A DNA stretch of 632 nucleotides from Escherichia coli (GTDB lineage Bacteria; Pseudomonadota; Gammaproteobacteria; Enterobacterales; Enterobacteriaceae). The notes beneath the pieces were generated by a model. That model was given only the letters and a program-made list of their open reading frames with translations, did no database searches and was not told the DNA's origin. A program made the translations under genes and the position numbers. The first letter of the stretch is position 1. Every line of letters starts with the position of its first letter. The stretch lies in assembly GCF_003334785.1 (NCBI RefSeq), contig NZ_QOWV01000080.1. The stretch is one strand, 5' to 3'. This document shows, piece after piece, positions 1-632 of this stretch.

Positions 1-3
1 GAA

Positions 4-93
4 TGGCCCTCCAACCGTGTTGACGAACTCCTGCCATGGAACGTAGTACTCACCAATAAATAAGCGTCAATACGGTGCTCCGTTGACGCTTAC
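4..93. repeat. Left arm of a long imperfect inverted-repeat pair bracketing the IS30 fragment
   Basis: Position p pairs with position 636-p of the right flank: 59/90 complementary by hand count, no gaps. Perfect blocks include 67-76 (tcaatacggt) with 560-569 (accgtattga), 87-93 (cgcttac) with 543-549 (gtaagcg), 4-8 with 628-632, 13-17 with 619-623, 37-41 with 595-599. Confidence 0.8.
61..92. repeat. Hairpin-forming inverted repeat inside the left arm: perfect 10-bp stem, 12-nt loop
   Basis: 61-70 taagcgtcaa is the exact reverse complement of 83-92 ttgacgctta; the loop is 71-82 tacggtgctccg. On the minus strand the stem is followed by TTTATT (complement of 55-60). The corresponding region of the right arm (544-575) does not form an equivalent hairpin. 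Confidence 0.7.
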
Positions 94-542
94 AGATGAA
101 ATGGTCTCCAGAGCAAATATCAGGATGGTTAAGGCGAACAAAACCACGTCAAAAAACGCTGCGAATATCACCTGAGACAATTTATAAAACGCTGTACTTT
201 CGTAGCCGTGAAGCGCTACACCACCTGAATATACAGCATCTGCGACGGTCGCATAGCCTTCGCCATGGCAGGCGTCATACCCGCAAAGGCGAAAGAGGTA
301 CGATTAACATAGTGAACGGAACACCAATTCACGAACGTTCCCGAAATATCGATAACAGACGCTCTCTGGGGCATTGGGAGGGCGATTTAGTCTCAGGTAC
401 AAAAAACTCTCATATAGCCACACTTGTAGACCGAAAATCACGTTATACGATCATCCTTAGACTCAGGGGCAAAGATTCTGTCTCAGTAAATCAGGCTCTT
501 ACCGACAAATTCCTGAGTTTACCGTCAGAACTCAGAAAATCA
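94..542 (+). mobile_element. Internal fragment of an IS30-family insertion sequence (transposase gene body only; neither IS terminus present)
   Basis: Translation of 96-542 matches, from my memory of the protein, the central part of E. coli IS30 transposase InsI (MKWSPEQISGWLRRTKPRQKTLRISPETIYKTLYF...GHWEGDLVSGTKNSHIATLVDRKSRYTIILRLRGKDSVSVNQALTDKFLSLPSELRKS). Upstream of 94 the frame hits TGA at 84-86 and the expected ...LVLEKLE is absent; downstream of 542 the expected ...LTWDRGMELA is replaced by unrelated sequence. No IS30 terminal inverted repeat is recognisable. Boundaries are approximate to within a few bases. Confidence 0.85.
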
Positions 543-569
543 GTAAGCGACTCGTCAGAACCGTATTGA
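96..569 (+). pseudogene. insI: Truncated IS30 transposase ORF (InsI-like): 149 internal codons fused to 8 flank-encoded codons (VSDSSEPY) and a TGA stop
   Basis: Supplied ORF track 96-569 (157 aa). Contains the HWEGD motif typical of the first catalytic Asp region of IS30-family DDE transposases but lacks the N-terminal helix-turn-helix region and the distal catalytic residues. The ATG at 96 is an internal Met of the native protein; the 15 bases upstream (ttgacgcttacag) carry no GGAG-like Shine-Dalgarno; in-frame TGA at 84-86. Confidence 0.8.
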
Positions 570-632
570 TATTTACTGAGAGCTCAGATCAACTTTCCAG
601 GGCAACAGATCGCGTACCCGGTTTGCCGGCCA
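543..632. repeat. Right arm of the same imperfect inverted-repeat pair; begins at the first base after the IS30 homology
   Basis: Reverse complement of 543-632 aligns ungapped to 4-93 at about 66 percent identity; the strongest blocks are 543-549 and 560-569. The arm reaches the window edge and may continue beyond it. Confidence 0.8.

Follow-up and report, generated by a model that had tools for sequence, protein, structure and literature searches.

A perfect hairpin at the right terminus of an IS66-family element is probably a by-product of the terminus itself

Positions 55-95 of the window (the whole 632-nt stretch of Escherichia coli DNA analysed here) hold a perfect hairpin beside an IS30 fragment, and the locus raises the question of whether this hairpin is an element in its own right or part of something larger. 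The arms at 61-70 (TAAGCGTCAA) and 83-92 (TTGACGCTTA) are 100% complementary over 10 bp and lie 12 nt apart. The motif TAAGCGWC occurs at 61-68 (+), 85-92 (-) and 544-551 (+), three matches where 0.04 are expected, a number reached in 0 of 200 dinucleotide-preserving shuffles. The inverted-repeat search, the motif count and the fold all bear out the original prediction, so its description of the DNA was accurate: the perfect 10-bp stem, the three copies of TAAGCG(T/A)C at these positions and strands, the four G/C bases among ten in the stem, and the TTTATT that directly follows the stem on the minus strand are all present.

Folding, the check proposed for the hairpin, predicted a stable structure, with minimum free energies of -17.0 kcal/mol for plus-strand RNA (z -4.6), -19.8 kcal/mol for minus-strand RNA (z -4.4) and -12.7 kcal/mol for DNA of either strand. 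Across RNA and DNA the z-scores ranged from -4.4 to -6.0, and no shuffled sequence folded equally well. The predicted 12-nt loop was right as a spacing but is not open: ACGG (72-75) pairs with CCGT (80-83), and the full fold is an interrupted stem of 13 bp that has a bulge of 2 nt and closes in an apical loop of 4 nt.

Pieces of three insertion sequences, each with annotated matches in E. coli, make up the window, whose features are as follows.

1-63, plus strand: 3' end of tnpC of an IS66-family element (ISEc47/ISEc23 type), comprising the last 20 codons and the stop codon TAA at 61-63.
61-93, plus strand: right terminal inverted repeat (IRR) region of the same element, ending at C93 and holding the hairpin 61-70/83-92 and an inner helix, 72-75/80-83.
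65-75, plus strand: conserved inner inverted-repeat box CGTCAATACGG (reverse complement CCGTATTGACG), the first six bases of which lie in the 5' arm of the hairpin.
83-93, minus strand: IS66-family tip GTAAGCGTCAA, which on the plus strand makes up the hairpin's 3' arm and is presumably the end that the transposase recognises and cleaves.
94-542, plus strand: internal fragment of IS30, approximately IS30 nt 479-927 and part of the transposase ORF, between two IS66-family ends.
543-575, reverse orientation: right terminal inverted repeat of an ISCro1/IS679-type IS66-family element, with no hairpin.
573-632, minus strand: 3' end of tnpC of this second IS66-family element, with its stop codon at 575-573.

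The hairpin region 55-95 is the right end of an ISEc47/ISEc23-type IS66-family insertion sequence, running from the stop codon TAA (61-63) to C93. The frame 1 translation of 1-63 (EWPSNRVDELLPWNVVLTNK, then the stop) is identical to the C-terminus of the intact 530-aa TnpC of E. coli EC291 (L002), and among the matches to positions 1-93 are thousands of E. coli loci that carry the annotation IS66-like ISEc47/ISEc23/IS682 family transposase. TnpC homologs carry the domains PF03050, PF13817, PF13005 (zf-IS66) and PF13007 (LZ_Tnp_IS66). The 33 nt of 61-93 (reverse complement GTAAGCGTCAACGGAGCACCGTATTGACGCTTA) also close the intact copies L002 and L003. Elements of this kind are about 2.5 kb long; in L002 tnpA, tnpB and tnpC are annotated and the left end reads GTAAGCGTAAACTGACCGCCGTATGTAGCC, with a left inverted repeat (IRL) beginning GTAAGCGTAAACTGACCGCCGTAT. 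In the intact L002 and L003 copies this repeat matches the right end at 22 of the first 30 positions, an imperfect inverted repeat. L003, a 97% relative with the same ends, is a 2,532-bp element flanked on either side by TTATTTAC, a target duplication of 8 bp without mismatch, and perfect 8-bp duplications surround GTAAGCG...CGCTTAC at 10 further family loci.

These properties are those of the family, whose inverted repeats of 20-30 bp start with GTAAGCG and are flanked by 8-bp direct repeats (PMC11946415). The window's end carries the GTAAGCG tip (the reverse complement of 87-93); an imperfect inverted repeat of 20-30 bp lies at the opposite end in L002 and L003; the 8-bp target duplication is that of L003, whose ends are identical to the window's, rather than of the window's own copy; and the end adjoins a tnpC gene for a DDE_Tnp_IS66 transposase, in L002 the last of a tnpA-tnpB-tnpC operon. 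Because the ends of intact copies, the duplications and the family rule agree, base 93 is the last of the left element and base 543 the last of the right one. An IS66-family end is a known kind of feature, and the present one is real but ordinary.

The IS30 fragment (94-542) gave matches of 99-100% annotated as IS30-like element IS30 family transposase, with IS30 coordinates counted from the IS30 left end at L001:4132 (E2348/69). Native IS30 reads GCTGG/AGATGAAATGG at the 93/94 junction and GAAAATCA/CTGACATGG at the 542/543 junction, the slash marking the junction. Since native IS30 sequence runs across both points, 93/94 and 542/543 are true IS66/IS30 boundaries. At the second boundary the ISCro1-type element adjoins IS30 after GAAAATCA (535-542, the element starting at 543), and the native site lies within an inverted repeat with 5-bp arms, GTCAGaactcagaaaatca/CTGAC. 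No single place among the complete E. coli genomes and PLSDB records searched covered more than 86% of the window.

The third motif copy (544-551) is the tip GTAAGCGAC of the second element. Positions 543-632 match loci annotated as IS66-like ISCro1/IS679 family transposase, the minus-strand translation of 573-632 is WPANRVRDLLPWKVDLSSQ followed by the stop, and 543-575 matches the right end of L086 with one mismatch; between the TnpC of L086 and that of the left element, identity is 75%. The original prediction had made the left arm the partner of the right arm. The two are indeed related, but through homology, each being the right end (tnpC 3' end plus IRR) of a different IS66-family element, and not as flanking partners of the IS30 fragment: the alignment of 1-93 with the second end takes in both entirely, 59 of 90 aligned positions are identical, and the two encode C-termini ELLPWNVVLTNK and DLLPWKVDLSSQ, each followed by a stop. 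The two right ends lie tail-to-tail, facing each other across the IS30 fragment, 449 bp apart, the second element having inserted in this orientation into the same IS30 copy.

Three different IS66-family ends meet IS30 at exactly one bond, before AGATGAAATGG. One is the ISEc47-type right end at 93/94 of the window; another is a different left end in E. coli HL15 (L102:708/709, reading GACGGTACTCAGACGACGCTTAC/AGATGAAATGG); and the third is an ISCro1-like left end in TUM10008 (L103:709/710, reading GACGGTTTAAATGAGACGGTTAC/AGATGAAATGG), which was also seen on the minus strand of metagenome contig SKEX01000715.1 (L104:5180/5179). A metagenome scan with a 25-mer specific to the window's junction returned this contig alone, whose junction is of a different type (the ISCro1-like left end). 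The native IS30 site at the shared bond is a palindrome with 7-bp arms, CTGG/AGAtgaaatggTCTCCAG. A general IS66 preference for palindromic targets was considered and set aside, as 11 reconstructed empty sites showed no excess structure (z -1.85 to +1.15). The coincidence suggests an IS66-family insertion hot spot in IS30 (nt 478/479), and repeated joining at one bond hints at IS66 target-site selectivity.

Whether the palindrome is a dispersed repeat of its own was addressed by counting it. Of 5,426 complete E. coli genomes, 4,519 contained the 39-nt unit, at 12,597 places in all. Window 1-100 was found at 12,486 places, and 5,786 of the 6,097 records that it matched had one place covering at least 80% of the query. 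The near-equality of 12,597 and 12,486 places indicates that the unit travels with the tnpC 3' end. The suggestion of a dispersed small palindromic repeat was thus not supported, although the motif does recur: nearly every copy is joined to a tnpC 3' end, a few remnants aside. Truncated remnants start at window positions 42, 43, 61 and 71. An independent palindromic repeat or MITE was rejected given the tnpC-bound copies, the varied breakpoints and the lack of a duplication at the solo copy described next.

On E. coli plasmid pE203449_106 (L092:1500-1533) the 33-nt unit stands alone, preceded by a G, and reads GTAAGCG...CGCTTAC tip-to-tip over 34 bp. No tnpC lies upstream and there is no 8-bp duplication; the unit adjoins an internal fragment of an IS3-family (IS911-like) element. 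We considered a mobile micro-element here and rejected it as unsupported, given the missing duplication, the IS3-family neighbour, the roughly 20 records with the exact junction and the varied breakpoints of the remnants; this solo copy is one inherited mosaic junction. A 40-bp unit with its tips outward, GTAAGCGCCCCGAGAAG/TACGGTGCTCCGTTGACGCTTAC, was seen on E. coli plasmid p4 of strain 360D-1 (L100:134-173). In it the final 23 nt of an ISEc47-type right end adjoin the tip of another sort of IS66-type end. The unit resembles a MITE-like derivative formed by internal deletion, and showed no 8-bp duplication. K-12 MG1655 carries the hairpin unit (NZ_CP012868.1:2563103-2563135) at the end of a tnpC 3' pseudogene fragment (L101:1375-1533, NZ_CP012868.1:2562977-2563135), at the edge of the CP4-44 prophage adjoining yeeW, cbtA and cbeA; the unit lies between a eutP-like gene and yeeW and is followed on the plus strand by CTTTAATCCGTTTTCTG.

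The reverse complement of the 3' arm is the family end signature GTAAGCGTC, and the tip is kept in more than 40 diverse loci, many with flanking 8-bp duplications. The 5' arm (61-70) consists of the TAA stop (61-63), then GC, then the start of the inner box. CCGT(A/C)TTGAC is found in most right ends of the family and CCGTCTGGAC in left ends, and both modules, GTAAGCGTC followed after about 9 variable nt by CCGT(A/C)T(T/G)GAC, occur at both ends of more than 40 distant loci. Because the two modules recur in this way, TAAGCG is the IS66 end signature; the copy at 61-68 arose because the stop codon, together with the two bases after it, by chance completes the tip in inverted form beside the inner box. 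In this respect the original idea of a protein-binding site belonging to a repeat family came nearest to the truth, the sites being IS66 inverted-repeat tips, though it had not identified IS66. By analogy with other DDE transposases, TnpC would bind and cleave at the tip; the literature searched held no experimental data on binding or cleavage of IS66 ends, nor any description of such a right-end hairpin.

To follow the hairpin across the family, we compared 80 loci of the family, drawn from contigs of one genome per species and spanning 48-97% TnpC identity, with intermediate lineages added by exact-protein look-ups. The perfect stem was present only in L002, L003, L004 and L006 (90-97% TnpC identity) and in L010 (55%). 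Lineages at 83, 79, 77, 75, 73 and 70% TnpC identity lack it: between 5 and 8 of the 10 pairs are left in them, and no mismatch is compensated. Only two substitutions, at G64 and G85, separate the relatives at 83% and 73% from a perfect stem. An alignment of 14 right ends of the compact clade (A3), in which stop and tip span 33 nt, has 17 invariant columns among its 33, namely T61, the inner box 67-75 (TCAATACGG, columns 7-15) and the tip 87-93 (CGCTTAC). None of the 10 pairs was altered on both sides in these 14 sequences. Every pair has one invariant side, which makes a shuffle control of covariation uninformative, and the G64-C89 pair forms in only 5 of the 14. A conserved structured RNA was therefore rejected, with 0 of 10 pairs compensated and no relevant Rfam match at E<=10; the Rfam scan of the whole window at this threshold gave only two chance eukaryotic hits, elsewhere than the hairpin. 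The other ends are unstructured: the left end of the left element has z of about -0.7, and the ISCro1-type right end in the window folds as DNA at -4.1 kcal/mol (z -0.73).

The carrier at 55% TnpC identity, from Acerihabitans arboris, stands apart. About half of its last 60 coding nt differ from the window, and its terminal 33 nt are identical at 29 of 33 positions, with the stem fully identical and all four differences between the arms. This end (L010:4447-4539) is closer to the window's than are those of the 70-83% relatives, despite the TnpC identity of 55%, and reflects either an exchange of ends between IS66 lineages or sequence convergence. A left end was not found in this copy.

We consider it probable that the perfect palindrome is a by-product, and at most a weak accessory, of a transposase-recognised end. 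In this explanation the 3' arm is the inverted-repeat tip, presumably recognised by TnpC, and the 5' arm is the stop codon plus the inner box (CGTCAA...); tip, inner box and stop codon would each be constrained independently, and the 10-bp palindrome would be a lineage-specific extension of complementarity already existing among them. Support for the by-product comes from the uncompensated mismatches, the invariant side of each pair, the distance of only two substitutions, the unstructured other ends, the binding of the unit to tnpC, and the negative terminator scan and Rfam search. Against it stand hints that the stem may be maintained: the identical stem of L010, the position of substitutions in sampled variants and the structured stop-to-tip segments, the last two described below. 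We infer that the hairpin has no dedicated function. As a weak accessory it could modestly hinder transcription that arrives from the right flank, or form a 3' stem-loop on the tnpABC mRNA.

One rival role is that of an inward-facing weak intrinsic terminator or insulator, in which the minus-strand hairpin and its UUUAUU would partly stop transcription entering the IS66 element from the right flank, and tnpC would be protected against antisense read-in. On the minus strand the RNA forms a stable hairpin (-19.8 kcal/mol, z -4.4), and its tail TTTATTGG has 5 T in 8. On a rough score of the d'Aubenton-Carafa type, indicative only, the minus strand reached d = -8.5 (tail TTTATTGGTG), just below threshold, against -65 for the plus strand in the window. 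The TTT itself derives from a conserved Lys codon, AAA, that precedes the stop in relatives. However, a simple scan found no intrinsic terminator on either strand, and two classic terminators scored well above this hairpin, at +17 to +30. An intrinsic terminator is expected to have a G+C-rich stem, a loop of 3-8 nt and a U-run; this stem has 4 of 10 G+C and an unfavourable A/U-rich base (UAA/UUA). The closest relatives keep the T run yet lack the stem, and the only stem variant, C65T, gives an A.C mismatch on the minus strand. The weak terminator for antisense transcription in the original prediction thus keeps its stable hairpin and T-rich tail but not a positive scan or a passing score, and we think this role unlikely; its judgement that a strong terminator was unlikely was upheld by the empty scan, the score of -8.5 and the A/U-rich stem base.

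On the plus strand, the hairpin could be an RNA element, a 3' stem-loop that ends the tnpABC mRNA with the stop codon in its stem and either guards against 3' exonucleases or terminates transcription where the insertion site supplies a T-run. Its RNA folds at -17 kcal/mol (z -4.6), and DNA after the tip is T-rich at some sites, such as CTTTAATCCGTTTTCTG in K-12 and CCTTTTTGTTTTT in L093. Sampled E. coli variants showed four substitutions: three lie in the apical loop of 4 nt (76, 77 and 79), and the fourth, C65T, is the lone change in the stem, where it leaves a G.U pair on the plus strand only. Hairpins from stop to tip recur family-wide with unrelated sequences: the segments between stop and tip show more structure than controls of equal length from within tnpC (z<-2 in 14 of 47 versus 3 of 47; median z -1.14 versus +0.24; paired Wilcoxon p=5e-6), and the hairpins after tnpC in other lineages have unrelated sequences and positions and no U-runs. 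This suggests that some hairpin after tnpC may be favoured family-wide. Such signs of stem maintenance are hints only, because the samples are small and related by descent. Against the RNA element, the insertion sequence provides no U-tract of its own, and all tested contexts scored far below threshold (-65 for the window, -34 to -67 for eight further insertion sites); no compensatory variation was seen, and the stem is missing in relatives at 70-83% identity. We therefore regard a dedicated plus-strand element as improbable.

A separate palindrome, GTGTCC(G/A)C...G(C/T)GGACAC, was seen just after the tnpC stop, with no U-run, in L036, L040, L048, L051 and L055. Its carriers are Acidobacterial and Burkholderia-type IS66 elements, in which it lies between the tnpC stop and the right tip, and the half-site GTGTCCAC occurs singly in the related right ends of L021, L038 and L047. 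The distribution suggests a protein-binding motif rather than a terminator.

In a wider reading, the subterminal inverted copy of the IS66 tip would be a selected functional hairpin or dyad, serving as a second transposase-binding site or pseudo-end that sets the right end apart from the left, or as a built-in transcription insulator. We find this quite improbable. Were it true, the compact enterobacterial clade would have an insulator in place of the separate post-tnpC hairpins of its longer-ended relatives, and the identical stem of L010, at 55% TnpC identity, would be due to selection, convergent or conserved; at its furthest, this reading would let the tip-to-tip unit of 34 bp move as a minimal element.

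The version of this proposal at the level of DNA holds that the dyad TAAGCGTCAA-N12-TTGACGCTTA is a second site for TnpC or TnpA, which would make the right end differ from the left, or a cruciform. The dyad is perfect, its arm centres are 22 bp apart, it is present at the right end only, and it folds as DNA at -12.7 kcal/mol on both strands. TnpC homologs have a leucine-zipper and zinc-finger N-terminus (PF13007, LZ_Tnp_IS66; PF13005, zf-IS66), and L010 retains both arms while its spacer has diverged. Yet the internal copy starts ATAAGCG rather than GTAAGCG, the dyad is absent in relatives with active-looking elements and 8-bp duplications (L089), and experimental IS66 end-binding data were absent from the literature searched; a DNA-level role is very unlikely. 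Finally, TTGACG at 83-88, 5 bp from the tip, could be an outward -35 hexamer that combines with a -10 in the flank into a hybrid promoter, as IS1, IS2 and IS30 ends do, and it matches TTGACA at five of six positions, but this is extremely unlikely given that a simple scan found no promoter-like site in the window on either strand and that TTGAC at this position is lineage-specific. Hybrid promoters from -35 boxes in insertion-sequence ends are established for other families (discussed in PMC8764528). An outward promoter from IS66 ends was also set aside on a published IS66-family case, in which insertion of ISCro1 upstream of afaA in the afa locus lowered rather than raised transcription.

The locus matters mainly for its annotation: two IS66-family ends bracket an IS30 fragment, and the hairpin and its motif should not be taken for a regulatory element of the neighbouring DNA. 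Nested mosaics of insertion sequences such as this one are typical of islands and plasmids in E. coli and Shigella. To our knowledge the biochemistry of IS66 transposition is almost unstudied, so that any asymmetry between IS66 ends is worth knowing.

Compared with known systems, the hairpin resembles three classes of element to different degrees. Like intrinsic terminators, it is stable and has a T-rich run after the stem on the minus strand; unlike them, its stem is interrupted with an A/T-rich base, its T-run is short and broken, and its plus strand has no T-run of its own. With REP/BIME sequences and IS-derived MITEs it shares being short, palindromic and present in thousands of E. coli copies, whereas the unit in the window is almost always tied to a tnpC 3' end. 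The closest likeness in structure is to the inverted repeats of IS66-family members (IS66, IS679, ISEc8, ISEc23, ISEc47, IS682 and ISCro1), which have in common with the window's end the GTAAGCG tip and an imperfect inverted repeat of about 25-30 bp, matching the left end and placed directly 3' of tnpC. In the present lineage the right end, and not the left, has an inverted copy of its own tip overlapping the tnpC stop codon, and it is this copy that produces the perfect 10-bp hairpin by which it differs from most members of the family.
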